A model generated the notes under the pieces. It did not search any database. It was not told where the DNA came from and saw only the letters and a list, made by a program, of their open reading frames with translations. The position numbers and the translations under genes are program-made. A stretch of 51,676 nucleotides of DNA, from the IMG/VR virus record IMGVR_UViG_3300009183_000012, positions 1 through 51,676 of that record; one strand, given 5' to 3'. Numbering within the stretch: the first letter of the stretch is position 1; each line of letters starts with the position of its first letter. This stretch comes from a virus (lineage: Duplodnaviria; Caudoviricetes). This document shows positions 5,201 through 48,018 of the stretch, piece after piece.

Positions 5201-8200
5201 AGTGGCGTTCGACTTGTTCCCGAGTGCAGAGCGCCAGTCGGTAAACTCCTCGGGCAGGAGCGCAGTCTTCTGAGCCGCGAATGGGCGGTCTTTGGCCGGG
5301 ATGTTTTTGTTGACTCCGTTCTCGTAGTTCTGGGCTCCGAAATTGACCCATGAGTTTTGACCTCTGGTCTCACTCGACAACGCCCGCTGGGCTTCCGGAC
5401 TGAACATCTGGGAGTGCTTGATCCAAGCGTTCTCCTCGCCCCGGGGGCCGAACTGATAGTCTTCGGCGGCATGTCCAAACAGGTCGTGAACTGCTCGAAG
5501 TTTGTCGTTGGTGGTAAAACCGGTTTTAGGATCAACTGCATTGAGGAATGGATGCGGATCGCCACCTTGAAAGAAGTAGATGTGGTTGTTGTCCCGAACA
5601 TCTTTCACCATCTCGCGGGAGTTGGCGTAGGGCTGACCTTCTTTAGTCCACGGCTCAAACTTTATGCCGAGATTATTGACGGCGAAGTCCCATTGGTCTG
5701 CCACCTCTTTTGCGAGAGCCTCATACGCCTTGATGGTCTCGGGAGACCGACTAACTTCCGGCAGTTCGTCGTAAGCTTTAGCAATCCTTTGAGCCAGACT
5801 CTCGTCTACCGGAACGTAATGGCCATGCTGAATCGGCTTCTGACCCGATTGGGCGTTGTAGTCGTCGGCAATTCTCCTTACTGCTTCGTTGGGTTGGCGG
5901 CTGCCAGTTTTCGCGCCTGTTCTGGCGTCCACCCCCGAGGACGGCGATAGAACTCCTCCTCCGCCTTGCCTGACGCCGGGCGCGTAGCGGTCGAAGGCTT
6001 GTTCAAGGATCGTGCGGTACTGCCCGCGAAGACCATCGAGCTGCTGTACTTTTGAGCCGATTCCTCGTCGGTTAAGAATCTCAAGGTATGCTTGCCCTTT
6101 TTGATTGCGGGACCAGTCGTTGGCATAGGCGGTGATTCTGGTTGTGGGGCTGTCGACGTCAAGAGCGACATTGCGGACGTCAGCCCAAGTAGTCAGTCTA
6201 TCAAAGATCTGCTGCACCTTTTTTTCGGTGAATGCTTTGGGCGTGAAATTGCTGTCCGCATCGACGATGAGTGCCTCATTCCCGCCGGGAAGTTGATGCA
6301 CTGAAAAGCCGCTGAGTTTGGCGTCGTCAGCCAAAGAAGAAATTTCTGCGCTGTTAAACGGAGATCCATCGCTCTTTTTGAAACGGATGGACCGCGAGTT
6401 TTTGCCGCCGACGCCAAACGTAGCAGACATGGTAGCCGCTTGTTCAGAGGCGTGGGCCAGAGCGACTGCGAAGAGGTCAATGGCTTCGGTACTCCCCAAA
6501 AGCTCTATCGCAACCGATGGCGCAGGCTGGCCCCCGAAGATGCCGTCCCCCATGGAAATCTTTCGTACTCGCAGTGAGCCCCCGACCATGTCGGCGATCA
6601 TCGGTACTGCCTGCTCAAGCACGTCCTTAGTGATCGCTTGCTGAGTAGGGTACGGGAGTTGACCAAAGGATGGCAGGGTATTCCGAAGCCCCGCACCCGA
6701 ACTGTAATTGACCTCGGCATAGACGCGCCCGGTATTTTTCGCGAGGGCGCTTTCAACGCTCTCCTCGGGGAGACCGTACTGGCGCAGGGTACGCATCCAT
6801 CCAACAGCCTGTACCTCGGAAGGAGTCCAGTTGCCACCCTTCCACTGCTTCTCGTTGAGGTCTCTCGTAAGAGCGTTGCCCCACTCCGAAATCCCTTCGT
6901 AGCGCGGGCCGGAAGGACTGCCCGTCTGGTCGATGTTGAGCCCGAATGGCTTCATGCCCTCTGCCGTCACCCAAACTCGCGTCGGGACCTGAGAGATTTC
7001 AGTGCCTTTTTGAAGCGTTTTTGTCCGGGTGACCTTTATCGCGACTGGCTTGCCCGCGATGAAGAGGTTACCCTCGTCGGCCTTTTTCTTGAGGCGGGAA
7101 AGGGTCTGGTGGTCAACGTGGCCAGAGTCGCGCCCAGTGTGGACGTCGGCTACGAAGGGTTCGCCACCTCGGGCGTCTCCGCCCATATATGAACGCACGC
7201 GCCGCATGAAGCCCGCGTCCACGAAGTCGGTGAGTTTGGCTCCAAATCCCTTACTCTGCACCTGTTGAGTGAGCACCCCTTCAATTTTTTTGTCGGCCAA
7301 TCCACCCTTCTTGCCCACACCGATTCCAGCAAGACGGTCTTCCACCTTGAAGACATTACCGAGTGCTGCGCCGGGGCTGACATTCTGCTGCGCTGCAAGC
7401 CAAGCCATCATCATGGTAGGCGCTCGCTTCTCCCCAAAAGTAGAGACGAATTTCTGGTTCAGTTCACTGTACCAATTCCTGAACGTGGAGATATCAGCGT
7501 CGTTCAACCACTTCTCAGTTTCGGAAGCCCATGTCCCGAACGGTTTGCCGCCGAAATTCTTGTCCGCACCCACCGCAATCGGCCTTCCCTGCAAGTCCTC
7601 AAACTCGACAAGCGCATTTTTCGCGGTGCCGGTGCCGGGACGTTTCCCGAGTTTCATCCGCAAATTTTCTGCCGTGTCCCCCACGGAGGCGCGAAGAAAT
7701 TCTTCCGGCGTCTTCAGCACCGACGGGGAGTTGGACTTATCCCACAAGTCTTCCAGATGCGGCCTAACAGCTTCACCAAACTCCTTGGACATGAGCCCGC
7801 TCCAGTTGTCGTAGTCCTTGGCTCCCTTGGCCAGCAACTGGGCACCTTTGACTGAGACAGCCGCAGCCAATTCCGGATCGAGGAAAGCATTCGAGCTGAC
7901 TCGGCCTCCTCTGAAGGCACGCCGGATGACGCCATCGGCCCAGCCGTCGGCATCTTGCATCTGCTGCGCCTGCGCAGACAGCTGTACGGCGGGTGGCGGC
8001 TCGACGGGTGGAAGCTCACGGGCAAAAGCCTCTGCCTGCACGCGGGCCGGGTCGGGAATCTGCTCGGGAGCTGCACCCTGACGCGCCCGAATAGCCCGTT
8101 CCAGATCGCCCTGAGCCACCGACTGGACGGCAGCTTGGTCTTCAAACGCTTGCGCCGAAAACTCCGCGTTGCGCCCTGCGATGGGCGAAGCCTGACGACG

Positions 8201-22108: not shown

Positions 22109-23116
22109 TTAGCTGGATCCGGCGAATTTGCCGAGACCGCGAGGATTCTTGACCAGCAGCAAGAGAGCCGACTGGACAAGGCCGCGACGGCCACCACCCT
22201 GATTCTCAAGCTCCATCGAGTCGACGCCGAGCATGGTGCCGATGCCGACCAGCTGGGGGTCGATGACGTAGCCACGGGCCATCTGCTGATTGGTCGTGGT
22301 CGTGACCGCCGAACCGTCCAACAGGCCGTTGAACATGTCGGGGATGATCGTCACGGTGTGGAACGAGCCTTTGTAGACCGAGACATCGAGGTCGATGCGG
22401 TTACTGGCAGCGTCTTGGGAGACCTGATAGGTCTTGGTCGTGCCCGAGGCACCCTCAACACGTTGGAACGTGTTGATGGCGGTCATCAGGTTAGGGCCAG
22501 CGAACAGCGAGTAGGCGCGACGTCCACCGTTCTGGGTGAAGATCGAGCGGAACACGCCGTTGAAGGTGGCTTCCGTGAGGGAAGCCGTCGCCGTGGCGTC
22601 GATGTTGCCGGACGGCGTGAGGAACGCCGTGGGGACAGGATTCACGGTCTGAGCCGTGGACTGGATCCACTTGCCAAGGCCACGGGTCTTGTAAGGCAGG
22701 AGACCGGTGTCGGCCTGCATGTCGTTGTCGGAACCGATGGCGGCTTCGATGGAGCGTTTCAGCTCGCGCATCGCCTTCACCTTGGAGTTCGCGACTTCAC
22801 CGTCGGTGCCCGCCGGGTCGGAGGCTTCTTGGAGGTCCGAGACCATCCAAGGACGCCAGAACTTCTGGATGTAGTTGCCGAAGCGGGCGCGGTTGGCGGC
22901 TTCGTTGTTGAACGCATTGACGTCTTGGCCTTCCAAGACACCTGCGAAATCAACATTGGCGAGAGTGTCAGCCTGCCACGTTTGGTAGGTGTTGGTGACT
23001 TTGGTCGTCTTCGCGAACGAAGACGTCTTTGGGCAATCCTCGGGTTCAAGGATTGTGAGGAAGTTCGTGAGAGCTTCGCGATCTCCGGATACGTTGTATG
23101 ATGTTGCTAGAGCCAT
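22109..23116 (-). CDS. Major capsid protein (SU10/DUF5309-like)
   Basis: GDREALTN.L....PED.P, W..D.L, EG.D, NYIQKF, K.MRELKR.IE, RGLGKWI motifs. Confidence 0.85.
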   Translation of the reverse strand: MALATSYNVSGDREALTNFLTILEPEDCPKTSSFAKTTKVTNTYQTWQADTLANVDFAGVLEGQDVNAFNNEAANRARFGNYIQKFWRPWMVSDLQEASDPAGTDGEVANSKVKAMRELKRSIEAAIGSDNDMQADTGLLPYKTRGLGKWIQSTAQTVNPVPTAFLTPSGNIDATATASLTEATFNGVFRSIFTQNGGRRAYSLFAGPNLMTAINTFQRVEGASGTTKTYQVSQDAASNRIDLDVSVYKGSFHTVTIIPDMFNGLLDGSAVTTTTNQQMARGYVIDPQLVGIGTMLGVDSMELENQGGGRRGLVQSALLLLVKNPRGLGKFAGSS

Positions 23117-26824: not shown

Positions 26825-28507
26825 CTAATATACGCCCGTCCGGTTGCGATCCTCGGTGACGGGAGGGACATACTCGCACCCACCTTTGCGCAGGTAGCGA
26901 AGGCAGTCGACGAAGTCCTTGGTGTGCTCCTTGCCTCCCAGTTTGCCGGTGTACTCCTGCATGGCGTAGATGAAGTTCTCGCAACGGTCGGACACGTAGA
27001 GGCGGGGGGAGTTCAGGCTGTCGATGGGCTTCTTGGTATCATAGGCCAACAGGTTGGTGATAAGTTGGATGCCGTCCTCGATCTCACCCCGGTCTGACTC
27101 CGAGACCGCTGCGGGGGCTGGGATCATGCTGATGCCGCAGTCGTCCAAGTCCGAGATGATGGTGGTTGCTCCCCGGTCCTTGGTCTGGCGCTCGGCGGCT
27201 CCCATGCGTGGGTCGATGAACCGCTCAAAGATCTTCTCCGTCCCCTCGGCATCCTTGATGAGGCTGACGTAGCCCTTGATGTCCAAGCCGATCCCCTTCT
27301 GGGCCGGACCCTCCTTGTCCCCGGGGAGCGCCCAGTCGCCGTAGCTGACGTCGGGCCACTCCCGGTAGACCCACCACGTCCCGCGCACGTCGATGGCCAC
27401 CCACAGCATGCACCAGTTCTTGGACCCGCCCAAGTCGATGGCCATGTAGCGGGTGATGGGGTAGGGGATCTCGCCTCCCTTGGCATTGAACTTGGGCTTC
27501 AGCCATGGGAGGTCGTCGTGAGAGACCACGTTGACGTCCCGGCTGAAGAGGGGGAAAGCTGAGCTGACCGACTTGGTCGGTACTCCGTAGGCGCGGGCGA
27601 GGATGACCTCCCGGCTCTCCGAGCCGTAGAGCTTCATGAACTCCGTAATATCTGTAAATGGGTTGTCCTCGGTCCAAGCGTAGTGGATGCAGCAGGATCC
27701 CACCGACAGGCTCTCCTGCATGACCGGCAGATTGGCCATGATCTTGGGGTGGTTGCAGAAGCGGGTCTTGAGGGTGCGGGTCTTGGCGAGGATCTTTTCG
27801 ATGGTCTCGTTCCAACCGTCGACGACGGTGTAGGTCAGCAGCATCCGGCCATGGTAGGTGCCCAGTCGCCCCATGCGGATCGTCTCAAACAGGTCGTAGG
27901 GAATTTTTTCATCGGCCCAGACGAAGTGAGCCTTGATGCCTTCGATGATCTGGCTGTTCTGAGAGAACTGGGCGAAGTTGTAAAATTTTATGGAGCCGCC
28001 CCTCCGGTAGCCCTTGGAGGGTGGGAGGATGGCAATCGAGTCGGTGAAGCCGTTCTTCTGCGAGTATTGAAGGCTGTGATACGTACCCTTTTTCGTGGAC
28101 ACATTGCGCAGGTTCTCCGGCAGGGACTCGTAGACGAAGCGTTGCTGGTCGTCGATTGACCGTCGGTCGGAGATGTGAAAGCCGTAGACCTCGGCCTCGG
28201 GGATGGTCGAGGCAGCCCAGACCGTCATGCGTGCGCCGAGCGTGGTCTTCGAACTTTGGTTGCCCCCCAGAAGTACGTGGACGTTGTAGTGCGGCCAAGC
28301 GTCCATCACCTGATCCCAGACCGGGGGTGCCCAGCCCCAGCCCACGGGATTCTCCTGCATCTTGGCCTCGACCATCTTGCGATGGGAGACGTACTGCCGG
28401 AGTTCCGCATCGGACATCGCGGCCAGTTGCTCCGGTTTTAACGGTGGCACCCACGGTACGCCGAACCGGGGCTGGAACTTGTCGGCGTATTGAATGCTGG
28501 AGGCCAT
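26825..28507 (-). CDS. terL: Terminase large subunit
   Basis: Walker A GGNQSSKT, Walker B WADE, coupling LTYT, nuclease AIDLGG..NW and KDFVDCLRY; probable start ATG 28507. Confidence 0.9.
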   Translation of the reverse strand: MASSIQYADKFQPRFGVPWVPPLKPEQLAAMSDAELRQYVSHRKMVEAKMQENPVGWGWAPPVWDQVMDAWPHYNVHVLLGGNQSSKTTLGARMTVWAASTIPEAEVYGFHISDRRSIDDQQRFVYESLPENLRNVSTKKGTYHSLQYSQKNGFTDSIAILPPSKGYRRGGSIKFYNFAQFSQNSQIIEGIKAHFVWADEKIPYDLFETIRMGRLGTYHGRMLLTYTVVDGWNETIEKILAKTRTLKTRFCNHPKIMANLPVMQESLSVGSCCIHYAWTEDNPFTDITEFMKLYGSESREVILARAYGVPTKSVSSAFPLFSRDVNVVSHDDLPWLKPKFNAKGGEIPYPITRYMAIDLGGSKNWCMLWVAIDVRGTWWVYREWPDVSYGDWALPGDKEGPAQKGIGLDIKGYVSLIKDAEGTEKIFERFIDPRMGAAERQTKDRGATTIISDLDDCGISMIPAPAAVSESDRGEIEDGIQLITNLLAYDTKKPIDSLNSPRLYVSDRCENFIYAMQEYTGKLGGKEHTKDFVDCLRYLRKGGCEYVPPVTEDRNRTGVY

Positions 28508-28519
28508 CGGGTTTAGCTG

Positions 28520-28550
28520 TTGACAATGTTGCAAAATGCAACATTGTCAA
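28520..28550. promoter_or_regulatory. Perfect 14-bp inverted repeat with TTGACA on both strands (divergent promoter/operator)
   Basis: TTGACAATGTTGCA-AAA-TGCAACATTGTCAA between the divergent ATGs at 28507 and 28559. Confidence 0.75.
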
Positions 28551-28558
28551 GTTCTTCA

Positions 28559-28720
28559 ATGGCCAAGACCCCCAAACTGAGACAGGTACGGATCGCCAAG
28601 GATGTAGAACCCTTGATGCTTGCCGCCATGTTGGAGAGTTCCCGGTCTGCGCCCGCTGAAGTAAACCATGTCCTCCGTAAAACATATCTTGCCCGACGCC
28701 TCCGTCTACGACCGCGTTGA
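28559..28720 (+). CDS. Arc/ribbon-helix-helix-like regulator (53 aa)
   Basis: QVRI beta strand, helix, SRS...EVN..LR pattern. Confidence 0.55.
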   Translation: MAKTPKLRQVRIAKDVEPLMLAAMLESSRSAPAEVNHVLRKTYLARRLRLRPR

Positions 28721-29315
28721 AGATCTGAAGCTGCCGTTCGACGGCCAGACTTTCCCCTCCGCGCTCTCGCCGGTCTTTGATGATCTCGTCGGGAAGTTGA
28801 AGGCCAAGGTGGTCATTGAGGTCGGCTCGCACAAAGGCGGATCGGCAGTGCGTTGGGCCGGGGCCATGGGGGCGGAGGGGAAACTCTACTGCGTCGACAC
28901 TTGGCTGGAGTCTGCGGAGGCAGTCCTGAACAACTCCCAGACGTACACCATCCTCCGCCAGAACGGTCATCCCATGACCTACTGGCAGTTCCTGACGAAC
29001 ATGAAGTCCCGTGGCCTGCAAGACCGGGTGGTGCCCATCGTCAACACCTCTGCCGAAGGGGCCATCCTGCTGGGTGCTGCGGAGGTGGTGGCTGACATCA
29101 TCTACGTCGACGCCTCGCACACTTTTCGGGCAGCCTATCAGGACATCTGCGACTACTGGCCGTTGCTGCGCAAGGGTGGGGTGATGCTGGTCGATGACCT
29201 GACAACCTATCCTGACGTGTACGCGGCCATGCTGCGGTTCGTATCCGAGCAAGGTCTGTGGAGCAGCTTTGAAGCTGTCGACAACAACACCTTCGGTCTG
29301 CTGACCAAGCCATGA
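28668..29315 (+). CDS. Class I SAM-dependent methyltransferase (Methyltransf_24-like)
   Basis: IEVGSHKGGS, CVDTW, DIIYVDASH, D...YWPLLRKGG..L.DD. Confidence 0.85.
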   Translation: MSSVKHILPDASVYDRVEDLKLPFDGQTFPSALSPVFDDLVGKLKAKVVIEVGSHKGGSAVRWAGAMGAEGKLYCVDTWLESAEAVLNNSQTYTILRQNGHPMTYWQFLTNMKSRGLQDRVVPIVNTSAEGAILLGAAEVVADIIYVDASHTFRAAYQDICDYWPLLRKGGVMLVDDLTTYPDVYAAMLRFVSEQGLWSSFEAVDNNTFGLLTKP

Positions 29316-31861: not shown

Positions 31862-32193
31862 ATGGGTGAGTCTTTGTCGGCCAGTAAGCGGGAGATCCGG
31901 TCGTCTTTCAACGCATTTCCCAGTTTGGCCAGTCGCTCGGATTCGGTGACCGCTGCCAAGGCTTTGGTCAGGGATTGGACTTGGGTGATGGCCTCTTGCA
32001 GTTTGGACTCGGTAATCTTGAATTGGGCCAGCTCTTCGCGCAGAACCTTGCAGCGTTCCCGGTAGCGGGCGGTCACCCCCTTCATCAGGGACAGTCGGAT
32101 GATCTCGCGGTCTTTCGAGGCGAGCTTGCTGTGCAGTTCGTCGAAACGCTGCTGCCACTCGGCAACGGTCTTATCAAATTCTTCGTCGTTCAT
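31858..32193 (-). CDS. Coiled-coil hypothetical protein
   Basis: ATG 32193, ATGA-coupled on both sides. Confidence 0.6.
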   Translation of the reverse strand: MNDEEFDKTVAEWQQRFDELHSKLASKDREIIRLSLMKGVTARYRERCKVLREELAQFKITESKLQEAITQVQSLTKALAAVTESERLAKLGNALKDDRISRLLADKDSPI

Positions 32194-32585
32194 ATATGGG
32201 TCTTGATGGCTTTGGCTCTGCGTTCCTTGATCAGGTGTGGTAGGCATAAAGTGCGATTGGGGGCTGCGGGCTGGCTGCATTGGCGGCAGATTCCCTGTTG
32301 TGACCGGCGAAGGGACCAGAGGAGCTTGGCCTCCAGTCGGGCCTGTGCGATAGCGGTGTGCTGGTGGCAGTGACGCCTGCCCTTGACGGCGCACTGGCCA
32401 CAGATGACGCATAGGCCCATTGCGACCCTTTCCGCCCTCTTCAGGGCAGAAGCACGCCTCCGTTCCGCGCTTCGCGCAGAATGGATAGGGCACAGGGTCT
32501 GGCCGGGGATCACTGCTCCATTGCAGTGGGTGCAGAGGTTAAGGGCTTTGTGCTCCATTCTCCACTGAGCTTTCGATTTCGCCAT
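32190..32585 (-). CDS. Triple CxxC-x9-CxxH zinc-finger protein
   Basis: CTHC..CPIH, CVIC..CHQH, CRQC..CLPH separated by basic helices. Confidence 0.7.
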   Translation of the reverse strand: MAKSKAQWRMEHKALNLCTHCNGAVIPGQTLCPIHSARSAERRRASALKRAERVAMGLCVICGQCAVKGRRHCHQHTAIAQARLEAKLLWSLRRSQQGICRQCSQPAAPNRTLCLPHLIKERRAKAIKTHI

Positions 32586-32625
32586 GCGTTCACCAGATCG
32601 GGGGGCGTTGGCCGAGTCAAGAGTT

Positions 32626-32826
32626 TTCCCAATAAAAATGGGGGATCTCCCGCAAAACTCCGCCTATAATCAAGTATTATGCTTTTCGGGCTGTATATAT
32701 ATTTTTTATTATTATTTCTATAATTTATCTCGCGTGTAAAGTAAATCAAATAAAATAAAATACGGTAAACAATAAATCCCGTAATCTGGCGGAGTTTTCC
32801 GGCAGCTCCCCCATTCTACTTGGGAA
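32626..32826. other. AT-rich core flanked by 39-bp imperfect inverted repeats (candidate origin)
   Basis: Arms 32626-32664 and 32788-32826; core is strongly AT-rich in a GC-rich genome. Confidence 0.6.
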
Positions 32827-32841
32827 TATCTGACCGGCCCT

Positions 32842-32905
32842 GAACTGGGGGAAGACCTACTCCGAACTGGGGGAAGACCTACTCCGAACTGGGGGAAGAC
32901 CTACT
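32842..32905. repeat. Three tandem 22-bp iteron-like repeats
   Basis: GAACTGGGGGAAGACCTACTCC x2 plus a 20-bp third copy. Confidence 0.9.
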
Positions 32906-33116
32906 GTAAAATTCGATTTGGGGGTTCCAATGGATAATAAGAATTGCGCGAGCGCCCGCGCCTGACCCCCTCCCCCCCTCCCTGCTCCAGATCTGGTGCC
33001 TCGCTCCACCCGAATACCGGTCTCCCGCCGTGCCCCCACGGTCTCGTATCCGCTCCCCGCATACACGCAGCGCAACCCCATGCGGCACAAGCACTTCCGC
33101 AGACAGCTAGGACCGA

Positions 33117-33144
33117 ACTTAACATAATCACCATTGTACGTTAC
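33117..33144 (-). other. dif-like XerC/XerD recombination site
   Basis: Minus strand GTAACGTACAA-TGGTGA-TTATGTTAAGT; XerD arm 10/11 to E. coli TTATGTTAAAT; 11-6-11 geometry. Confidence 0.7.
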
Positions 33145-33184
33145 CGGAGCGCAGACGAGTGCGGCGCAGGCACTTACGCAAACA

Positions 33185-33591
33185 GGCACCCGGCACCCGG
33201 CGACTGCGGCACCCGGCACCCGGCACCCGGCGGCACCCGGCTCCGGCGGCACCCGGCTCCGGCGGTCGACGGCGGAATCCGGCGACTAGGAAACGATTCC
33301 TGCTAGTTGAAACCCATTCTCAATAACTTACGTAAGTCGCTCCCAGATCAACTTCCCCACGTCCCCACGTCCCCACGTCCCCACGTCCCCACGTCACCCG
33401 TCACCCGTCGCCGGATCCCGTCGCCCCACGTCACCCATCACCCGTCACCCGTCACCCGTCGCCCCACTTGCGTAAGTCGCCCCACTGCCCCACGTCACCC
33501 GTCACCCGTCGCCCCACTGCCCCACCGCCCCACGTCACCCGTCACCCGTCACCCGTCACCCACCAGCCCACCAGCCCACCAGCCCACCAGC
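33185..33591. repeat. Polar arrays of short repeats (GGCACCC x7, CCCCACGT x5, about ten GTCACCC, CCACCAGC x4)
   Basis: Read directly; all are C-rich on + and G-rich on -. Confidence 0.9.
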
Positions 33592-33645
33592 CCACTTCCT
33601 CACGTCACTCCACTGCCCGCCCCAACTGGTAACCGCGCCTCGAAA

Positions 33646-33661
33646 TGTTCCACATGGAACA
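33646..33661. promoter_or_regulatory. parS-like palindrome
   Basis: TGTTCCACATGGAACA, 15/16 to the parS variant TGTTCCACGTGGAACA. Confidence 0.65.
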
Positions 33662-34065
33662 ATTTCTAACTTCATGCACCGCATGCACTTACGTAAGTCA
33701 CTTACGTAAGTTACTGCGGCACAGTAACTTAGCACCGGCGTTTCCTGCCCTTTTAAGCCCACTCTAATACGTTTTCTGTCCCTGCTCTGAAATCGCGCAA
33801 GTCGCTAGTCCATCAGCGACTTCCGCATTTATGACACGGCAACCCTCTACCCATACCGCCACCGACCCCCTCAGGCCCGCAAATCGAAAGGAAACGGCCT
33901 TAGAATCGATTTCACCTAAGTCGTTCTTTCGCAACACTTTGGTGAGATCGGACTCTCCACACTATATATAGGAAAAATCCCACGCCCCCAAAGCTTATGA
34001 CACACAGAGATTACAGAATCTGTCACTTTGTTGTCGACACCTACCAATACCTGTTTCAGGGTGAC

Positions 34066-34452
34066 GTCGTTGGTGACGGGGACGGTAGCAGAGGCGGGGG
34101 GCGCGGCCCTCCAAATCTCCCCCCTCGGCCCCGACCTGACGGCCCCGAAAACCGCGCTACGTCGCGGTGGGTGATGGTGGGCCAAGCGCAAAGGAGGTGA
34201 CCGACTGCATGGGCTAACGCCCCTGCGACTGGTCTCGATCCCCCGCCCCGACCGTCTCGGTCGAAGTAGCTGCCCCCGGCAACCGCGTTCCAACCAACGC
34301 ACCGGGGGACGTACAGGTCATCCCCCCGCCTGCTGCGCATCGCTCACCGAAACCACGATCCTGACCGACGTGGAGGACCAGTGAGCAGGAACACCAAGTG
34401 GGTGTTTCCTACAGTGACCACGCCCCGCGTGGACCCTGTTGGAAGCACCCAC
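34066..34452 (+). ncRNA. Candidate structured leader/ncRNA of the early operon
   Basis: No convincing ORF; at least five successive hairpins; possible promoter TCGACA-17bp-CAGGGT at 34034-34062. Confidence 0.4.
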
Positions 34453-34475
34453 GCTTCACCCAACCAACCAAAAAC

Positions 34476-34757
34476 ATGTCTGCCGATCACATCGCCTCGC
34501 TCTGCGCTCGCTGCGATAGCGCCAGCGCCAACGCCTCCGCCTCCCTCGCCCAACTCGCAGCCCAGACCGGGCCACGCAACCGGGCCAAGTGGCGGCGCGA
34601 ACATGTCCTCCGCGTCGGCCAGCTCGACCGCGCTGCCCTCGCCCTCGCCCTCGCCCTTTGGGTCCAGCCTCACGCCGAGGACCCGCTGCCCGCCTCCTAC
34701 CGCCAGTACGCAACCACCATCCACGGCTATGCCGTCAAGCACCTCAACGTCCTCTAA
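34476..34757 (+). CDS. Early hypothetical protein (93 aa)
   Basis: CA-rich leader then ATG 34476; C-ending codon bias. Confidence 0.65.
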   Translation: MSADHIASLCARCDSASANASASLAQLAAQTGPRNRAKWRREHVLRVGQLDRAALALALALWVQPHAEDPLPASYRQYATTIHGYAVKHLNVL

Positions 34758-34758
34758 C

Positions 34759-35094
34759 ATGTCCAAACTCATCCTCCCCCGGATCCACCTCGGTGGCACC
34801 GGCCCCACCACGCTCATCGCCGATTACTCCGCTGCCATCGCGGCGTTGCAGGAAGCCCTCCGCCTGCTCGGCGAGAGCTACCACGACCGCGACTACTACC
34901 TCCTCGGTCAGGATATCCACCGCGAGGCTCGTGGTCAGCACGTCGAACGCTGCGCCGCCATCGGCGGCGTGATCGCCGCCCTCCGAGCCATGCAAGACCA
35001 CGCTGCCGACGAGCGCGACGCCCGCGACGGCATTGCCCGGGCGTGGCTCGACGCTGACGCCGACGACCACCACGCCCGCACCCGCCAACCCTAA
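34759..35094 (+). CDS. Early conserved phage protein (P.IHL.GT...RDYY family)
   Basis: ATG 34759; LPRIHLGGT and HDRDYY motifs. Confidence 0.7.
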   Translation: MSKLILPRIHLGGTGPTTLIADYSAAIAALQEALRLLGESYHDRDYYLLGQDIHREARGQHVERCAAIGGVIAALRAMQDHAADERDARDGIARAWLDADADDHHARTRQP

Positions 35095-35147
35095 GGACGA
35101 AACGCCCCCACCGGGCGTCTCGGCGTTTCGCGCCGACTGACGAGTCC
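35095..35147 (+). ncRNA. Type II hammerhead ribozyme
   Basis: GGAC-GAAA-CGCCC(CCACC)GGGCG-UC^-UCGGCG(UUUCG)CGCCGA-CUGACGA-GUCC: complete core and three paired stems. Confidence 0.9.
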
Positions 35148-35178
35148 AGCCGCCTCACCTGTTCCACCTGTTCCTCCC

Positions 35179-36213
35179 ATGTCCTCCTCCTCCCGCCTCA
35201 CCCAACTCCTCAACGCCAACCGCCGCGTCCTCCTCGTAGGTCCGCCCGGTTGTGCCAAAACCGCTCGCGTCGCCGCCGCCGCCCTCGACTGCAACCGCAA
35301 GCTCATCGTCTTCCGTTCCGCCCTCGCCGAGAGGGTGGACCTCGGTGGGTGCTACGTCCCCAACCAAGCCAAGGGCGTCACGGAATCGCTCCCGCTGCAA
35401 CTCCTCTGGGACTTGCGGCACACCACCGTCCCCACCCTGCTCTTCCTCGACGACCTCGGGCAGGCCCCCGTCGACGTGCAGGCTGCAGCGATGGCCCTGT
35501 TTGACGACGGTGCCATCAGCAAGTCGGTCGTGATCTGGGGTGCCACCAATCGACCCGGCGACAAGGCCGGTGTGACCTCGCTCTGCGAGCCGCTGCGCTC
35601 GCGGTTCCACGTTGCATTTGCGATTGCAACGCCCCAGACCGAAAACAAGACCGACGGCCCGACCTACGTCGCCCCGTGGCGCGATGAGGTCGATGCGTGG
35701 GCCGCGTGGGCGAACGAGCAGGGCTTCGCCCCTGAGCTCGTCGCGTGGCACCGGTCCACGACCGGGCGTACGTTGTACGCTTGGAAGCCCGCCGCCGACC
35801 CGGCCACCCGCATGCCCGACTTCCGCAGCTGGGAAACGGTCGGTCACCTCTGGGAGGCGGGTCTCCGCGACTTCGACACGATCAGCGCCGCAATCGGCAA
35901 GGCTGCCGCCGCAGAGTTCCTCGCCTTCGCCGCCCTCGCCGACCAGCTGCCCACTCCACAACAGGTGTGGATGGACCCGCACGGTGCCACGGTGCCGACC
36001 GAACCGGCGGCGCAGTACCTGATCGCCTCCATGCTCGGTCGGGCGGCGGAGGCCAAGTTCGCGCCGCAGCTGGTCACGTACCTGTCCCGCCTGCCCCGCG
36101 TGATGGGTGCCTACTGCGCAAAGGACGCCTTCGCCCGCCTCGGTGCCAAACTCGTCGCCAACAAGGCATGGCAGGAGTGGTGGGTCGCCAACCAAGCCCT
36201 GTTCACTGCCTGA
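35179..36213 (+). CDS. MoxR-like AAA+ ATPase
   Basis: Walker A GPPGCAKT, Walker B LLFLDD, GATNR, EPLRSRF, P.FRSWE. Confidence 0.85.
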   Translation: MSSSSRLTQLLNANRRVLLVGPPGCAKTARVAAAALDCNRKLIVFRSALAERVDLGGCYVPNQAKGVTESLPLQLLWDLRHTTVPTLLFLDDLGQAPVDVQAAAMALFDDGAISKSVVIWGATNRPGDKAGVTSLCEPLRSRFHVAFAIATPQTENKTDGPTYVAPWRDEVDAWAAWANEQGFAPELVAWHRSTTGRTLYAWKPAADPATRMPDFRSWETVGHLWEAGLRDFDTISAAIGKAAAAEFLAFAALADQLPTPQQVWMDPHGATVPTEPAAQYLIASMLGRAAEAKFAPQLVTYLSRLPRVMGAYCAKDAFARLGAKLVANKAWQEWWVANQALFTA

Positions 36214-38339: not shown

Positions 38340-38645
38340 ATGACCACGATCAACGGCAACGGCATCGGCATCGGCTACGGCTACGGCAACGGCTACGGCA
38401 ACGGCTACGGCGACGGCTACGGCGACGGCGACGGCAACGGCTACGGCGACGGCTACGGCGACGGCGACGGCGACGGCTCCGGCAACGGCTACGGCTACGG
38501 CTCCGGCTCCGGCTACGGCTACGGCTACGGCATCGGCATCGGCGACGGCTACGGCTGCGGCATCGGCGACGGCTACGGCTGCGGCGACGGCGTCTTCGCC
38601 CGACGCGCCGACGACCCATTGCAGGCACTCACCACCCTCTCATGA
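38340..38645 (+). CDS. Gly-X repeat protein 1 (101 aa)
   Basis: MTTING-(GX)n-GVFARRADDPLQALTTLS. Confidence 0.8.
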   Translation: MTTINGNGIGIGYGYGNGYGNGYGDGYGDGDGNGYGDGYGDGDGDGSGNGYGYGSGSGYGYGYGIGIGDGYGCGIGDGYGCGDGVFARRADDPLQALTTLS

Positions 38646-38881
38646 CGACGATCAAAGGCGACGGCATCGGCTACGGCTCCGGCTACGGCTACAACAACGG
38701 CGACGGCTACGGCTACGGCTACGGCTCCGGCTACGGCTACGGCTACGGCATCGGCAACGGCGACGGCTACGGCGACGGCTCCGGCGACGGCTACGGCATC
38801 GGCGACGGCTACGGTGACGGCGACGGCGTCTTCGCCCGACGCGCCGACGACCCATTGCAGGCACTCACCACTCTCTCATGA
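38642..38881 (+). CDS. Gly-X repeat protein 2 (79 aa)
   Basis: ATGA-coupled; same N- and C-terminal caps. Confidence 0.8.
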   Translation: MTTIKGDGIGYGSGYGYNNGDGYGYGYGSGYGYGYGIGNGDGYGDGSGDGYGIGDGYGDGDGVFARRADDPLQALTTLS

Positions 38882-39257
38882 CGACGATCAAAGGCGACGG
38901 CTACGGCTACGGCTCCGGCTACGGCTACAACAACGGCGACGGCTACGGCTACGGCATCGGCTCCGGCTCCGGCTCCGGCTACGGCAACGGCAACGGCTAC
39001 GGCTACGGCATCGGCATCGGCTACGGCAACGGCAACGGCTACGGCTACGGCATCGGCAACGGCTACGGCGACGGCGACGGCTACGGCTACGGCCATGGCT
39101 ACGGCTACGGCGACGGCTACGGCTCCGGCTACGGCAACGGCTCCGGCTCCGGCTCCGGCTCCGGCAACGGCGACGGCTCCGGCAACGGCAACGGCCAAGG
39201 CACCGGAGTCTTCGCCCGACGCGCCGACGACCCATTGCAGGCGCTCACCACCCTTTC

Positions 39258-39261
<4 letters not shown>
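38878..39261 (+). CDS. Gly-X repeat protein 3 (127 aa)
   Basis: ATGA-coupled; same caps. Confidence 0.8.
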
Positions 39262-39563
<302 letters not shown>

Positions 39564-40748: not shown

Positions 40749-40770
40749 TTGACACGAACGCGAGTTCGTG
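40749..40770 (+). promoter_or_regulatory. TTGACA -35 box overlapped by inverted repeat CACGAAC-gcga-GTTCGTG
   Basis: Upstream of the primase operon. Confidence 0.45.
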
Positions 40771-40789
40771 ATCGTGGTGCCACCCTGCA

Positions 40790-40921
40790 ATGACTCCCTC
40801 TCAACTTGCCGCCGCCCTTGGACGATTGTCCAAAGGCAAAAAGAAAACCCTGTCGAAGGCCGAGATCGCCCGACGGACCAAGCGATTGGCCGAAGCGCGG
40901 AAGTTGAGGTGGTCCAAATGA
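40790..40921 (+). CDS. Small basic peptide (43 aa), missing from the ORF track
   Basis: MTPSQLAAALGRLSKGKKKTLSKAEIARRTKRLAEARKLRWSK; its stop overlaps the primase ATG. Confidence 0.6.
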   Translation: MTPSQLAAALGRLSKGKKKTLSKAEIARRTKRLAEARKLRWSK

Positions 40922-43362
40922 GCGCCCGCTACTTCAGCGGACTCGCCAGCCACCTCGGACAGGTCCACGAGTTGCCCCACCAGACCTTCGCAGAGCTGGT
41001 CGAGGCAACCGTGGCCAAGCCGGTGCAGCTGGCACTCACTCGGCCCCAGATGTTCGCCCTGCCCGACAAGGCGCAGAACGAAGCCAAGCGCACTGCCTAT
41101 CTGGTGCCAGCGGTCTTCAAGACCAACCCCTCACCCCGCCAGACTGACGCGGCAACACACTGCAACCTGTTATTCGTCGACATCGACGACGGAGCAGAGA
41201 CGCAACGCATCCTCAACGTCGGACCCGCCACCCTGTTGGGGGATCTCGCCGCCGTGGTGTGGCACACTGCCCGCTCGACCCCCGACAAGCCCCGCCTCCG
41301 CGTCATGGTCTCAACCGAGAATCTGCCGGTCACCCAGTACGCCCGGGCAGTGACCGCACTGGCGGGACTGCTCGGCATGAGTTCAGTCACCCACGAATCC
41401 AAGGTTGCCGTCCAACCCATGTATGTCCCGGTTCAATACGCGGGAGATGCGACCACCCCGCTGGTCTATGACAACCCGGATGGCACCAGCTTCGACCACG
41501 CCACCCTTGCGGCACTCGACAATCTGCGCTCGGCCAATCCCCCCGCGCCGGAGGATGCCGACTTGGGCGACATCGAATACCTCCGTGCCCCGGTCGAGGA
41601 TATCACGACCGAGGAGATCACCGAAGCACTGACCAAGCTTGACGCCTCCTGCTCCATGCAGGCGTGGGTCGAGGTTGGCATGGGTCTCAAGCACCAGTTC
41701 GGACCCGCCGGTCTCGCCCTGTGGGACCAGTGGTCTGCCACCTCCGACAAATACCCGGGCCGGGAGGAGTTGCAGAAACGCTGGGACTCCTTCGCCGCTT
41801 CGCCCGCAGGGCGCGTCCCCATCACCATCCGCAGCATCATCCACGCTGCCACCGAGAACGGCTGGGACAACCGAGCCCTTGCCTCCCGCCTCTTTGAGAC
41901 CACCCGGGAATGGATCAGGTCCGACCAACGCTCCTCCGAGGAACTGCTCGACCAAGGGGGCAAGCGCATAGCCAAACTGGATACGATGATCGGAGCCTTG
42001 GAGCGCAAGGTTCTCCTCTCCGATCTCCACTCTGCGACCAAGGCCCGTGGGCTGCGTGGACCCACGGTGCAAGACCTGTCGCGTGAGGTGCAGCGATTGA
42101 CCCAGACCGCCACCCGTGCCGCCAGCAGTGCCCCACCTTGGACGGTCGGCATCGCTTTCCTCACTGCCCCCAACCTGTTTTACCGTTACCTCGACCGTCG
42201 CAAAATGCGGGGCGAGGTGGTCGACCTCATCTACCGCAGCCCCGACCCGACCCAGATGACCCGGCAATACCTCGTCCACGACGTGGGCATCCCCGTGGTG
42301 GAGAATCTGCGTTACGCACCCTCCGAGAGGAAACGTCTGTTCTCCTCTGGTGGCGTGCCGTATCTCAATACCTACTTCCCCTCCTTCGCCCCGCCCGATG
42401 CCAGTCAGTCGGTCTTGGCAGGCACACACTGGGAGGAGCATGCGATTAACCTTATGGGTGCAGACTATTGGGTCACCCTCACCGACTGGCTGGCTTACCA
42501 AGTGCAGCACCCCGGCAAGAAGATCCGCTGGGCACCCGTCATCCAGTCTGCGGTAGGCGGGGGCAAAGGGCTGGTTGCCCACGTCGCGACCCTTGTCTTG
42601 GGCAGCCCCAACGTGCAACGGCTCGCAGCCGAACATGTCTTGGAAGGCAGCCACAACGGCTGGGCTGCCAACTTTCAACTCACCGTCTTGGACGAAGTCC
42701 GCATCATCGGAGCCAACCAGCACCGGGTCATGGACAAGCTCAAGCCCTGCATCTCGGACGACTCCATCTCAGTGCGTCAGATCTATGAGCCGGTGATGAC
42801 GACGCCTAACGTCACCAACTACATCTTGTTCACCAACTATCACGACTCGCTCGCAGTCCATGACGAGGACCGTCGCTACTTCGTCGTCAACAGTCCTCTC
42901 AAGGACCGGCAGGCGATCCTTCGCTTGGGTTCCGACTACTTCGACCGCATGTACTCCACCTTCGCAGCCAACGCAGGCGGACTGCGGCACTTCTTTGAGA
43001 ACTGGAAGATCTCCCCCACGTTCAAGCCCGAGGGTCGGGCACCCATCACTCCGTTCCTCGGTGCCCTCGCCAAGCAGACGGCTTCGCCTCTGTCCCGTGC
43101 CGTGAGCGAGGCATTGGAGGATGAACCCACCCCACTGGTGCGCCGTGACCTCGTGTCCCTGACGGAACTACGGCAATCCCTCCCCTCGCACCGACTGCCA
43201 GCCTTCACCGATCAAGGTTTGTCCGGCATCCTGAGGGACAAGGGCTTCACCGATCTCGGTCGGCATCCCCTGAACGGCGAACGGCACTCGCTCTGGACGA
43301 CGAGAGACGAGCCATTGGCTGTCACCCTTGGCCACGCGCAGGCGCGACTCGATCTTTTCTGA
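40918..43362 (+). CDS. Primase-helicase (PrimPol-like + PriCT-2 + SF3/DUF5906-like)
   Basis: FVDIDD and WHT..S..P.LRV; W.EVGMGLK..LWDQWS..KY; Walker A GGGKG, VLDE, FTN..D....DRRYFV; probable start 40918. Confidence 0.85.
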   Translation: MSARYFSGLASHLGQVHELPHQTFAELVEATVAKPVQLALTRPQMFALPDKAQNEAKRTAYLVPAVFKTNPSPRQTDAATHCNLLFVDIDDGAETQRILNVGPATLLGDLAAVVWHTARSTPDKPRLRVMVSTENLPVTQYARAVTALAGLLGMSSVTHESKVAVQPMYVPVQYAGDATTPLVYDNPDGTSFDHATLAALDNLRSANPPAPEDADLGDIEYLRAPVEDITTEEITEALTKLDASCSMQAWVEVGMGLKHQFGPAGLALWDQWSATSDKYPGREELQKRWDSFAASPAGRVPITIRSIIHAATENGWDNRALASRLFETTREWIRSDQRSSEELLDQGGKRIAKLDTMIGALERKVLLSDLHSATKARGLRGPTVQDLSREVQRLTQTATRAASSAPPWTVGIAFLTAPNLFYRYLDRRKMRGEVVDLIYRSPDPTQMTRQYLVHDVGIPVVENLRYAPSERKRLFSSGGVPYLNTYFPSFAPPDASQSVLAGTHWEEHAINLMGADYWVTLTDWLAYQVQHPGKKIRWAPVIQSAVGGGKGLVAHVATLVLGSPNVQRLAAEHVLEGSHNGWAANFQLTVLDEVRIIGANQHRVMDKLKPCISDDSISVRQIYEPVMTTPNVTNYILFTNYHDSLAVHDEDRRYFVVNSPLKDRQAILRLGSDYFDRMYSTFAANAGGLRHFFENWKISPTFKPEGRAPITPFLGALAKQTASPLSRAVSEALEDEPTPLVRRDLVSLTELRQSLPSHRLPAFTDQGLSGILRDKGFTDLGRHPLNGERHSLWTTRDEPLAVTLGHAQARLDLF

Positions 43363-46007: not shown

Positions 46008-46050
46008 ACCCTCAAGCCCCGTGTGGAAACACACGGGGCACAATTTTCCC

Positions 46051-48018
46051 ATGAAAGTATGCCTAGATTTCGAGACCCGTAGCCGTGCAGATCTCACCTC
46101 CGTGGGTGCCCACCGCTACGGTTGCGATCCATCCACCGAGGTGTTCATGGCCGCAGTCTCCGACCTTGAAGACGAGTACGCCCCGGTCTACCTGTGGATC
46201 AACCCCAAGTTCGCAGACGCTGGCGTCACGTCGGACATCGAGGCCCTGCCGTTTGTCCGGGCTGCGACCGAGGTCCATGCCCACAACGCCCCCTTTGAGC
46301 AGGCGATTTGCAGTGGTACGGGAATGCTGCCCGAGATCGGCCTCAACAAATGGCGTTGCACCGCAGCCATGGCCCGCATTGCCGCGCTGCCTGACTCGCT
46401 GGAGAAATGCGGCGAGGCTCTCGATATCTCCAACAAGAAGGACAAGCTGGGCAAAGACCTCATCAAGTTTTTCTCGCTGCCGCAGGAAGACGGAACCTTC
46501 AATGAACCCCGCGAGCACCGGCGGGAGTGGGCACAGTTCTGCGAGTACTGCCGCCAAGACGTGCGGGCAGAGAAGGAGATTCATAATCGCCTGAAAACCC
46601 GTTTCAGTTTGGTTGGAGCCAATCTGGACACGTTCCAATTCACGCTCCGTCTCAACGACACGGGGGTGCCGGTCAATATGACTGCCCTGCGCAACGCCCA
46701 GAGCATTCTCACCGAGGTGGAGACCGAGGCTGGGGCAGAGTTCTTCCAGTTGACCAAGCTCAACATCACCCAGCGGGCCAAGATCCTTGCACTGTTGCAG
46801 GCTGGCGGATTGCAGATCGACGACATGCAGGGCGACACGTTGCAGACAGCTCTTGCCGAGCAATTCATGACCCCCGCCATCCGCCGGGTGCTGGAACTGT
46901 ACTGCCAGTTGTCATACGCTGCGACCAAGAAGATCACGTCCATGTTGAACTGGGCCTGCCCCGACGACCGACTCCATGGAGTGTTCAAGTTCTACGGCGC
47001 GGGCACGGGTCGCTGGACTGCTGGCGGACCACAGGTGCAGAACGCGAAGAAGCCTTCCAAGGAGATGCGCCCCATCGTGGCTGATGCCTTTGCCTATGTC
47101 GCCAAGGGAGGCACGGCAGAGGGTCTGCGGGCAGTCTATGGAGAACCCATTGAGGTGCTCTCCTCCTGCATCCGGCAGTTCATCCAATCACCTGACGGTC
47201 AGTTGTTGGATGGAGACTACAACGCCATCGAGGCACGCATCGCCTGCTGGGTAGCCGGTGAGACTGTGGCCTTGGACGAGTATCGCCGTGGTGTGGACCG
47301 CTACCGGACCATGGCGGCAGAGATCTACTCGGTCCGCGTCACCGACGTCACCAAGGACCAGCGGGAGGTGGGCAAGCGGGCGATCCTCGGGCTGGGTTAC
47401 GGCATGGGGTCGGAGAAATTCCGGAGTTCCTGCCGGGATCTTTACGGCATCATCCTTAGCGACCAACTGGCTGAAGACGCCAAGCATGCTTTCCGGAACA
47501 CCCATCCTAAGATGGTCTCCTGTTGGAAAGCTTTGGACCGGGCCATACGCTATGCGGTGGGAGGCAGGTCAACCTTCACTGCGGGGGATGGGGACATGAT
47601 CTCCATCTGGAAGGAAGAGGCTGCCGGAATCCCCTATCTCTTTGTCCGCCTGCCCTCGGGTCGCCGCTTGGCCTATCCCCATCCCAAGGTGGAAGACGAC
47701 CCGAAGTTCGGCACCCAATTCACCTACTGGGGGGCGCTCCCCGGCTCGACCCAATGGGGCAGAGTGAAACTTTATGGGGCAAAGCTGTTTGAAAATATCT
47801 GCCAAGCCATTGCCGCAGACATCATGTCCCATGGAGCGAGAGTGGCCGAGTCGAGGTGGATGCTGCCGTTCGCCCTGATCCACGATCAGGCGCTGGCTGT
47901 CGCGCTCCCCAACCAGAACCCGTCAGATTTCTCCACTGCCCTCGCCTCCTCGCCTTCATGGGCGGAAGGTTTGCCACTCAAGGTCGAGGCCCATTTCGCA
48001 CCCTATTATTCCAAATGA
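46051..48018 (+). CDS. Family A DNA polymerase (APSE-like) with 3'-5' exonuclease
   Basis: LDFETRS, AHNAPFE, YC.QDV, GAGTGRW, DYNAIEAR, GK..ILGLGYG, ENICQA.A.D, IHDQ. Confidence 0.9.
   Translation: MKVCLDFETRSRADLTSVGAHRYGCDPSTEVFMAAVSDLEDEYAPVYLWINPKFADAGVTSDIEALPFVRAATEVHAHNAPFEQAICSGTGMLPEIGLNKWRCTAAMARIAALPDSLEKCGEALDISNKKDKLGKDLIKFFSLPQEDGTFNEPREHRREWAQFCEYCRQDVRAEKEIHNRLKTRFSLVGANLDTFQFTLRLNDTGVPVNMTALRNAQSILTEVETEAGAEFFQLTKLNITQRAKILALLQAGGLQIDDMQGDTLQTALAEQFMTPAIRRVLELYCQLSYAATKKITSMLNWACPDDRLHGVFKFYGAGTGRWTAGGPQVQNAKKPSKEMRPIVADAFAYVAKGGTAEGLRAVYGEPIEVLSSCIRQFIQSPDGQLLDGDYNAIEARIACWVAGETVALDEYRRGVDRYRTMAAEIYSVRVTDVTKDQREVGKRAILGLGYGMGSEKFRSSCRDLYGIILSDQLAEDAKHAFRNTHPKMVSCWKALDRAIRYAVGGRSTFTAGDGDMISIWKEEAAGIPYLFVRLPSGRRLAYPHPKVEDDPKFGTQFTYWGALPGSTQWGRVKLYGAKLFENICQAIAADIMSHGARVAESRWMLPFALIHDQALAVALPNQNPSDFSTALASSPSWAEGLPLKVEAHFAPYYSK

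Follow-up and report, generated by a model that had tools for sequence, protein, structure and literature searches.

A candidate phage copy of the host dif site in the non-coding control region of a tailed phage

The control region and its dif-like site

We focused on the genome of a freshwater tailed phage (Caudoviricetes; metagenomic IMG/VR record IMGVR_UViG_3300009183_000012), a complete virus record of 51,676 bp with matching ends and a completeness rating of 100%, the whole length of which is referred to here as the window, and in particular on a 28-bp sequence at 33117-33144 that resembles dif, the site at which the recombinases XerC and XerD (XerCD) act. This dif-like site lies in a 1.3-kb non-coding control region (32750-34040) located between a leftward small gene and the rightward early and replication genes. 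On the left, the structural genes run on the minus strand from ~82 to 28534, including those for the major head protein (22109-23116) and the large terminase (26825-28534), and are followed by a few plus-strand genes, one of which encodes a methyltransferase (28668-29315). The plus-strand early and replication genes are found after 34380 and include those for an AAA ATPase (35179-36213), a DUF2201 protein, a primase (40768-43362), a DUF2800 exonuclease, a family-A polymerase (46021-48018), and an SNF2 helicase. With PolA, primase, helicase, and exonuclease, and with no repressor recognized in it, this gene set is of the lytic type. The nearest polymerase of a cultured phage is that of Rhodoferax phage P26218 (33.6% identity), and a similarity search of cultured-phage DNA with 32700-34400 gave no match.

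An earlier reading of this DNA, made from its letters alone (the sequence-only reading), had described the region as a cassette mimicking the host chromosome, in which a dif-like site, four copies of the Chi octamer GCTGGTGG, a parS-like palindrome, and repeated ACTTACGTAAGT palindromes share one non-coding stretch of a phage that encodes none of the cognate proteins. Direct reading and pattern searches located all of these motifs where they had been placed. The stretch from 32750 to 34380 has no credible coding signal, i.e., no open frame with the codon-position GC pattern of real genes, and a six-frame family search of the whole window found no Phage_integrase (PF00589), Resolvase (PF00239), ParB_N (PF02195), CbiA/ParA (PF01656), or Gam (PF06064) domain, in agreement with that description. 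The open reading frames (ORFs) flanking the non-coding region have no family in Pfam or PHROGs, and a tRNA scan of the window found none.

Read on the minus strand, the dif-like site consists of two 11-bp arms in inverted orientation around a 6-bp center (GTAACGTACAA TGGTGA TTATGTTAAGT), and we propose it as a site for host XerC and XerD. Its XerD-type arm is identical at 11 of 11 positions to TTATGTTAAGT, the arm of single-copy sites in two bacterial genomes (G457 and G446) and of the dif site of Rhodoferax ferrireducens; that the phage has a Rhodoferax-type host is itself something that we infer. The XerC-type arm matches the generic beta-proteobacterial arm at 5 of 11 positions and the arm of the phage site family described below at 7 of 11, family members reaching 9 to 10 of 11. 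Compared with both arms of that family, the window site scores 18/22, a score reached by 1 of 300 shuffles and partly circular, because those 18 positions built the first pattern with which the family was found. In the related contig L007, ACTTAACATAAT, five variable bases, and TTGTGCG are kept at the dif-like site, which is located 3 nt from the contig end.

A family of phage sites and its match to bacterial dif

A scan of IMG/VR with the pattern from the window and L007 yielded 30 loci, in 25 of which the sequence following the pattern (AAGT in 21, TAGT in 4) completes a 28-mer of the form ACTT...(A/T)AGT. These loci belong to lineages with GC contents of 0.42 to 0.63, and for most of them no similarity of their proteins to those of the window was detected. 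Only L176, distantly related in its structural genes, has a shared terminase/portal/capsid module at 28 to 34% identity (terminase, 32%; portal, 28%). Given that the pattern had forced the arm match, the retrieval from IMG/VR was repeated independently through the adjacent small-terminase (TerS) protein alone, which yielded 80 loci, 78 of them evaluable. A site scoring at least 17/22 lies 103 to 258 nt after the small-terminase gene (terS) in 75 of the 78, and the three low scorers are still recognizable, with 9 to 11 of 11 positions matching in the XerD arm. A putative dif mimic is present in all 78 evaluable loci of this one terminase family and in at least three other lineages.

Across the 28 different 28-mers, the XerD arm TTATGT(T/A)AAGT varies at position 24 only, the inner ACAA of the XerC arm is nearly invariant, and the middle of the XerC arm varies. 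The central hexamers are mostly (T/C)G(T/A)CCA, with TGTCCA and TGACCA being the commonest. For bacterial dif, part of a published study describes the XerD arm as the best conserved, the inner parts as the most conserved, positions 23 and 24 as variable, and position 25 as fixed (PMC2731167), a profile that the variability of the phage family mirrors. In a comparison with the generic beta-proteobacterial dif, the site of the complete phage genome G403 scores 20/22, the highest score among 200 shuffles being 18.

The carriers of the site are tailed phages of 37 to 52 kb. The three complete site-carrying genomes (the window, G403, and G404) have one site per replicon and no PF00589 domain. The distance from the site to the maximum of the cumulative GC skew is 163 nt in the window and 82 nt in G404, a measure of position that is confounded by module boundaries, and the site of G404 lies in a large non-coding region with an 8-bp microsatellite. 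The detrended skew of the window has its minimum at 9954, inside the co-oriented structural gene block, and its maximum at 32954, in the non-coding region, with 23 kb of the 51.7-kb circle between them, and the coding strands are C rich on both arms.

At least two lineages have the site after terS, and no similarity was detectable between their proteins at the terS position. One lineage is Sf6-like, and its representatives L187, L193, and L177 are mutually only 30 to 35% identical (the TerS of L177 is phrog_1482); the other has an unrecognized helix-turn-helix-type ORF in L174 and L176, the stop codon of which is overlapped by the site. In many site-carrying lineages other than that of the window, 2 to 5 matches to the DnaA box lie within 120 to 400 nt of the site, with at least two boxes within 400 nt in 23 of 29 loci; the non-coding region of the window has no DnaA-box match. 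In the freshwater phage contigs L172-L200 and L209-L288, the DnaA-box matches are found at fixed offsets of ~38, 79, 94, and 118 nt after the dif-like site, between terS and the next gene, and could represent a DnaA-dependent origin or a titration site.

As given in part of the same published study, the typical beta-proteobacterial dif is ACTTCGCATAA TGTATA TTATGTTAAAT, and that of R. ferrireducens is ACTTGATACGA TGTATA TTATGTTAAGT (PMC2731167). A scan for phage-type sites in 401 genomes of one beta-proteobacterial order gave a single match, in G392. Within the family to which G392 belongs, 7 of 61 genomes have exactly one site each, against 0 for a reversed-pattern control, and the center is the canonical TGTATA in 6 of the 7, examples being the sites of G457 (ACTTCATACGA TGTATA TTATGTTAAGT) and G443 (ACTTTATACGA TGTATA TTATGTTAAAT). 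Given their single copy, their canonical center, and their identity with the published Rhodoferax site, these are probably the chromosomal dif sites. The arms of the phage family are identical to these bacterial arms at 20 to 21 of 22 positions and the center differs systematically: the phage sites ACTTTATACGA TGACCA TTATGTTAAGT and ACTTCATACAA CGTCCA TTATGTAAAGT agree with bacterial dif at 21 of 22 arm positions, with the center never matching. Two different conserved half-sites with a fixed spacing, common to lineages without a common neighboring gene, argue for a heterodimeric host binder, which would be XerC/XerD. At the level of sequence, the notion that the window site is a real mimic of the host Xer site is supported.

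A phage-type center was found in just one of 401 G392-family genomes, G581, where the site reads ACAA CATCCA TTATGTAAAGT. This site is located 137 nt after a PriCT_2/Toprim/DUF927 primase gene and beside an XRE-type ORF, in a small island beside tamB. The dif of G581 itself lies on a different contig, and both sites have the rarer XerD-arm variant TTATGTAAAGT, a single case of what would be co-variation between element and host. The island (G581:C5:1-11400, L290) carries, together with the phage-type dif-like site, a Panacea-domain antitoxin, RadC, the PriCT_2/Toprim/DUF927 primase, and XRE-type ORFs, and has the appearance of a satellite or an integrative element that makes use of this family of sites.

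Possible roles of the site

We consider the chances to be about even that 33117-33144 is a phage copy of the host dif that host XerCD use to recombine phage copies, for circle closure or multimer resolution. Host XerC and XerD would bind the 28-mer and recombine two phage copies, and this would close terminally redundant virion DNA into a circle or reduce replicating multimers to monomers, following the same logic as Cre-lox for P1 and cer/psi for plasmids. Productive recombination with the chromosomal dif would be prevented by the phage-specific central hexamer, and the constant place of the site just after terS would put it inside the terminal redundancy of the first packaged headful. Recombination between phage copies is favored because no integration was found, no tyrosine recombinase is encoded by the phage, and the site is placed after terS. 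An 18-mer of the structured RNA of the window lineage (see below) gave 17 matches in the genomes of 185,579 species, none of which is a real integrated copy, and no second Xer site was found in the seven G392-family genomes with a site.

Several observations weigh against such a role. Its XerC-type arm is a poor match, diverged in the outer part, and the whole site scores 15/22 to the generic beta-proteobacterial dif, which is at chance level (best scores have a null mean of 14.5, and a site at 48875 also scores 15); it was only with comparative data that the window site came to stand, as it now appears, above chance. In G403, the site lies 4.2 kb from the skew maximum. The records of the closer relatives L009 (100% complete) and L004 (93%), which share the ATPase and the structured RNA, are without any such site, and the dif-like site is therefore dispensable, an accessory element that comes and goes. 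No terS was recognized in the window, where tblastn with four TerS-type proteins gave only matches with E values of at least 0.1, and the site is 4.6 kb away from the large terminase gene. The GenBank relatives of the group-B terminase have no site near their terminase genes, and the group-B site region had no DNA match among cultured phages. The Rhodoferax-type host of the window phage is a presumed one. No accessory factor was identified for Xer recombination here, no search for PepA, ArgR, or ArcA sites having been made, and the constant position beside terS would also fit a packaging signal.

Known exploiters of host XerCD are plasmids, filamentous phages, tailless double-jelly-roll phages, microviruses, and genomic islands. 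Accessory factors are usually required where Xer recombination takes place away from the division septum, and cer and psi need ~180 bp of accessory sequence that binds PepA together with ArgR or ArcA. In P1, Cre-lox recombination also cyclizes terminally redundant DNA, and lox lies near pac. A literature search covering titles and the beginnings of abstracts found no report of Xer-site mimicry by tailed phages. According to part of a preprint, XerCD act at psi and cer and thereby keep plasmids monomeric (bioRxiv 10.64898/2026.02.23.706985). The phage site resembles these in being a cis-only site on an extrachromosomal replicon that would borrow host XerC/XerD in the absence of a recombinase of its own, and it differs in that the carrier is a tailed phage and that the site stands beside terS in most lineages. 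The integrative mobile elements exploiting Xer (IMEX), i.e., the CTX, VGJ, and TLC phages, the gonococcal island, and EludIMEX-1, are described in part of PMC5357621 as having a dif-like site and no integrase and as exploiting XerCD. The phages studied here likewise have a dif-like site without their own recombinase; however, IMEX are filamentous phages or islands integrated at dif, whereas the present carriers are tailed phages of 37 to 52 kb for which no dif-integrated copy was found in the sampled genomes, and the invariant arm of the phage family is the XerD-type rather than the XerC-type arm. Site-specific recombination by P1 Cre-lox unlinks the replicated copies of a tailed phage, as stated in part of PMC7192630, with a recombinase of the phage's own, whereas the enzyme here would be that of the host. 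With the Rhodoferax-type chromosomal dif, as far as it is presented in part of PMC2731167, the window site shares the 11-6-11 layout and the XerD arm TTATGTTAAGT; unlike it (TGTATA), the center is TGGTGA in the window and mostly xGxCCA in the phage family, and the outer XerC arm of the window has diverged.

Host XerCD might instead integrate the phage at the chromosomal dif, the 28-mer then being an IMEX-type attP in an integrase-free form of lysogeny, a possibility that we regard as improbable. The arms match the host dif in a phage without its own recombinase, and TGTCCA and TGACCA share their first bases with the host TGTATA and differ on the XerD side, which is the layout of CTX-type attP sites. 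The L007 contig, which ends 3 nt from the site, may have stopped at a branch point of the assembly, and IMEX classes have been described (in part of PMC5357621). However, the integration at dif put forward in the sequence-only reading found no backing: no integrated copy was found in the bacterial genomes, the scans of which covered samples only, and none of the 17 matches to the RNA 18-mer was real. Of the 61 family genomes, 7 have a site, in each case only one, and its center is host-type in all but one of them, and the phage-type center, present in 1 of 401 family genomes (G581), does not adjoin that genome's dif, which is on a different contig. The lytic-type gene content, with no repressor recognized, also speaks against lysogeny. 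A somewhat smaller chance is given to a pac or cos element recognized by the terminase, with a likeness to dif that would be coincidental. This would account for the position 103 to 258 nt after terS in 75 of 78 loci, for the overlap with the stop codon of the ORF at the terS position in L174 and L176, and for contig ends close to the site (15 nt in L185, 83 nt in L197, and 3 nt in L007); none of these ends, however, is within the site, from which they lie at varying distances. The same site also follows terS-position genes that are 30 to 35% identical or without detectable relation, it occurs where no terS was recognized (the window, G404, and the G581 element), and its unlike half-sites, 6-bp spacing, and 20 to 21 of 22 identical positions to bacterial dif arms would be difficult to account for by chance.

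About as improbable as dif-mediated lysogeny is that the region is an ordinary phage origin or early-control region, with phage proteins as the sole ligands of its boxes, palindromes, and arrays and with decayed or inert dif-like and parS-like motifs. Within the clade of the window, no repeated element is more conserved than the ACTTACG(C/T)AA boxes, which have 2 to 8 copies per upstream region; L009 and L004 carry other palindromes (of the TGAGACTGAGTCTCA type) and 12-bp iterons at the same place; the XerC-type arm of the window is weak; and the DnaA-box clusters that adjoin the site in other lineages (23 of 29 loci) suggest an origin context. On the other hand, the dif-like and parS-like motifs are exactly kept in L007 while the sequence between them has been replaced, and their scores were each reached in 1 of 300 shuffles. 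The full cassette of the sequence-only reading, in which Chi arrays, dif, and parS would act together so that the phage passes as chromosome, is very unlikely. The dif-like and parS-like motifs do lie within 530 bp in one non-coding stretch, and, in the arrays to the right of the site, the G-rich strand is directed toward it; but the Chi octamer is kept in no relative, where the units include CCCCGACA, CACCCCAG, CACCGCAG, and CCCGAT, the G-rich array beside the L007 site has the opposite polarity, there is no genome-wide bias of Chi or of FtsK-orienting polar sequences (KOPS), and GCTGGTGG is the enteric Chi, the host family being one that we infer is likely not enteric. Of cis-only mimicry of the host chromosome, then, the dif part stands, carried by the family with its arms at 20 to 21 of 22, the parS part is possible (15/16; kept in L007, absent at the aligned position of L008), and the Chi part falls, with a variable microsatellite and no genome-wide polarity.

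Beyond recombination between phage copies, a more far-reaching proposal, which we hold to be about as doubtful as a packaging signal, is that tailed phages of freshwater Rhodoferax-type beta-proteobacteria might persist in an episomal (carrier) state, free of integrase and partition genes, on host machinery: a dif mimic for XerCD, a parS mimic for ParB/SMC in the window lineage, and DnaA-box clusters for DnaA in others, so that the genome would be replicated, resolved, and segregated as a mini-chromosome. If XerCD act on the site, a common step in the DNA metabolism of tailed phages in freshwater bacteria would depend on a host recombinase, with circle closure, multimer resolution, and cryptic lysogeny as the candidates for this step. 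If true, the arm sequence would also be a cheap marker for predicting the hosts of uncultured phages.

Other elements of the region and its relatives

The parS-like palindrome TGTTCCACATGGAACA (33646-33661) has 2 mismatches to the 16-bp parS consensus; matches to this consensus at up to 3 mismatches are within chance (1.15 expected, with at least two matches in 34 of 100 shuffles). Small clusters of TGTT(T/C)CACGTG(G/A)AACA are found in five G392-family genomes, and the palindrome is identical at 15 of 16 positions to TGTTCCACGTGGAACA of the parS cluster of G443, a score reached by 1 of 300 dinucleotide shuffles. Like bacterial parS, it is a 16-bp palindrome; unlike bacterial parS, it has CA for the central CG, owing to a single G-to-A difference that no clustered bacterial site shows, and it is present as a single copy, without a ParA or ParB gene, in only two of the phage contigs examined. 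The palindrome and its flanks are identical in L007 and absent at the aligned position of L008, and no copy within 2 mismatches was found in the available upstream sequence of L123, L124, L121, and L130. In other lineages, it was not seen near the dif-like site, except for a one-mismatch match to the consensus in L180, 1.6 kb away. We read it as a real palindrome that appears to be constrained and that may load host ParB, a proposal weaker than that made for the dif-like site.

The ACTTACG(C/T)AA boxes are putative repeated protein-binding sites. In the window, ACTTACGTAAGT is found exactly at 33326 (copy 1, 33326-33337), 33687, and 33700, the latter two forming adjoining boxes 13 bp apart (33687-33711), and with one mismatch at 33466 (ACTTGCGTAAGT, copy 2, 33466-33477), and nowhere else. 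At up to 2 mismatches, this gives 4 matches versus 0.42 expected, a number reached in 0 of 100 shuffles. Related half-boxes (ACTTACGCAA and ACTTCCGCA) lie at ~33093, 33172, and 33819. The left edge of the region is AT rich (32711-32790) and includes a sigma-70-like promoter match (10/12; 32740-32711, minus strand) that faces a small minus-strand ORF (32190-32585). This ORF is oriented away from the non-coding region and shows two weak matches to WRC-type zinc fingers (27.3 bits versus a cut-off of 28.6), and L009 has a small Cys/His-rich ORF at a similar place (6055-6330, minus strand). The zinc-finger-like ORF of the window is a candidate binder of the repeated boxes.

Repeats make up much of the remaining region. 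A 22-bp direct repeat is present in 2.9 exact copies (GAACTGGGGGAAGACCTACTCC; 32842-32905, plus strand), imperfect 7- to 10-bp microsatellites with GGCACCC and CGGCACCCGG units occupy 33185-33265, an exact (TCCCCACG)5.2 microsatellite with a minus-strand G-quadruplex-type motif occupies 33354-33395, and ~24 imperfect CGTCACC copies mixed with CGCCCCAC units fill 33392-33561. The octamer GCTGGTGG occurs 9 times in the window. Four of these copies (minus strand, 33560-33591) belong to one 8-bp tandem array, (CCCACCAG)4.6, at 33559-33595 on the minus strand, which is what had been described as a Chi array; the others comprise, for one arm, 2 copies on one strand and 1 on the opposite strand and, for the other arm, 1 on each strand. 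Genome-wide, there was no Chi excess or polarity outside the array and no KOPS polarity, and an analysis of skewed octamers, the top words of which came from a coding repeat of ACGGCT, gave no polarity signal. That repeat has a 6-bp period and ~188 copies in plus-strand coding sequence at 38353-39503, encoding a very long Gly/Tyr/Asn-type repeat without a family match.

Among the relatives, GCTGGTGG is absent from the upstream regions of 7, and the array units vary (CCCCGACA, CACCCCAG, CACCGCAG, CCCGAT, and GCGGTGGTCG), with CCCCGACA present at 14.2, 8.8, 2.8, 3.6, and 9.6 copies in five contigs. Since unit and copy number change among close relatives and there is no genome-wide polarity, the arrays are best read as hypervariable microsatellites without sequence-specific host mimicry, the identity with enteric Chi probably being incidental. 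Of the 9 G-quadruplex-type motifs on the minus strand of the genome, 5 lie in the arrays, and L007 also has a G-rich array on the other strand. A reading of the arrays as telomere-like ends was rejected given the opposite polarity of the L007 array, and an assembly artifact was rejected because the same units recur in independent contigs at different copy numbers.

Seven relatives from IMG/VR, at 75 to 92% identity, were retrieved with the ATPase, and an 18-mer of a conserved block gave more from metagenomes. A 15-mer of a conserved block gave 82 viral loci, of which, as judged by contig name, only two (L055 and L077) belong to contigs of known relatives. The window, L007, L008, L123, L124, L121, L130, and L140 form a clade with a common plan, in which conserved unique blocks and 2 to 8 ACTTACG(C/T)AA boxes are interleaved with 6- to 10-bp microsatellites; one such unique block (33675-33940) shows ~71% identity in L007 and L008. 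In a second set (L003, L004, L009, and L109), the upstream region is built differently and contains 12-bp iterons and other palindromes together with two small minus-strand genes.

Directly 5' of the first early gene lies a non-coding block of ~430 nt (34046-34475, plus strand assumed) that is kept in 17 distinct sequences at 60 to 99% identity. RNAalifold predicts 109 pairs in it, with strong covariation: 40 have changes on both sides, and only 29 of 1,839 cells are non-canonical. The reverse complement gives 31 and 42, so that the plus strand is a provisional assignment. Rfam at an E value of up to 1 on 32000-35200 gave nothing for the repeat region or the structured block, which looks like an undescribed large structured phage RNA as judged from the folding model. 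Just 5' of the AAA ATPase gene, subthreshold matches to the type II hammerhead ribozyme (RF02276) were seen on the plus strand in both the window (35095-35155; 28.1 bits) and L009 (7904-7965; 29.9 bits), compared with a gathering score of 37, and both matches span the full length of the model.

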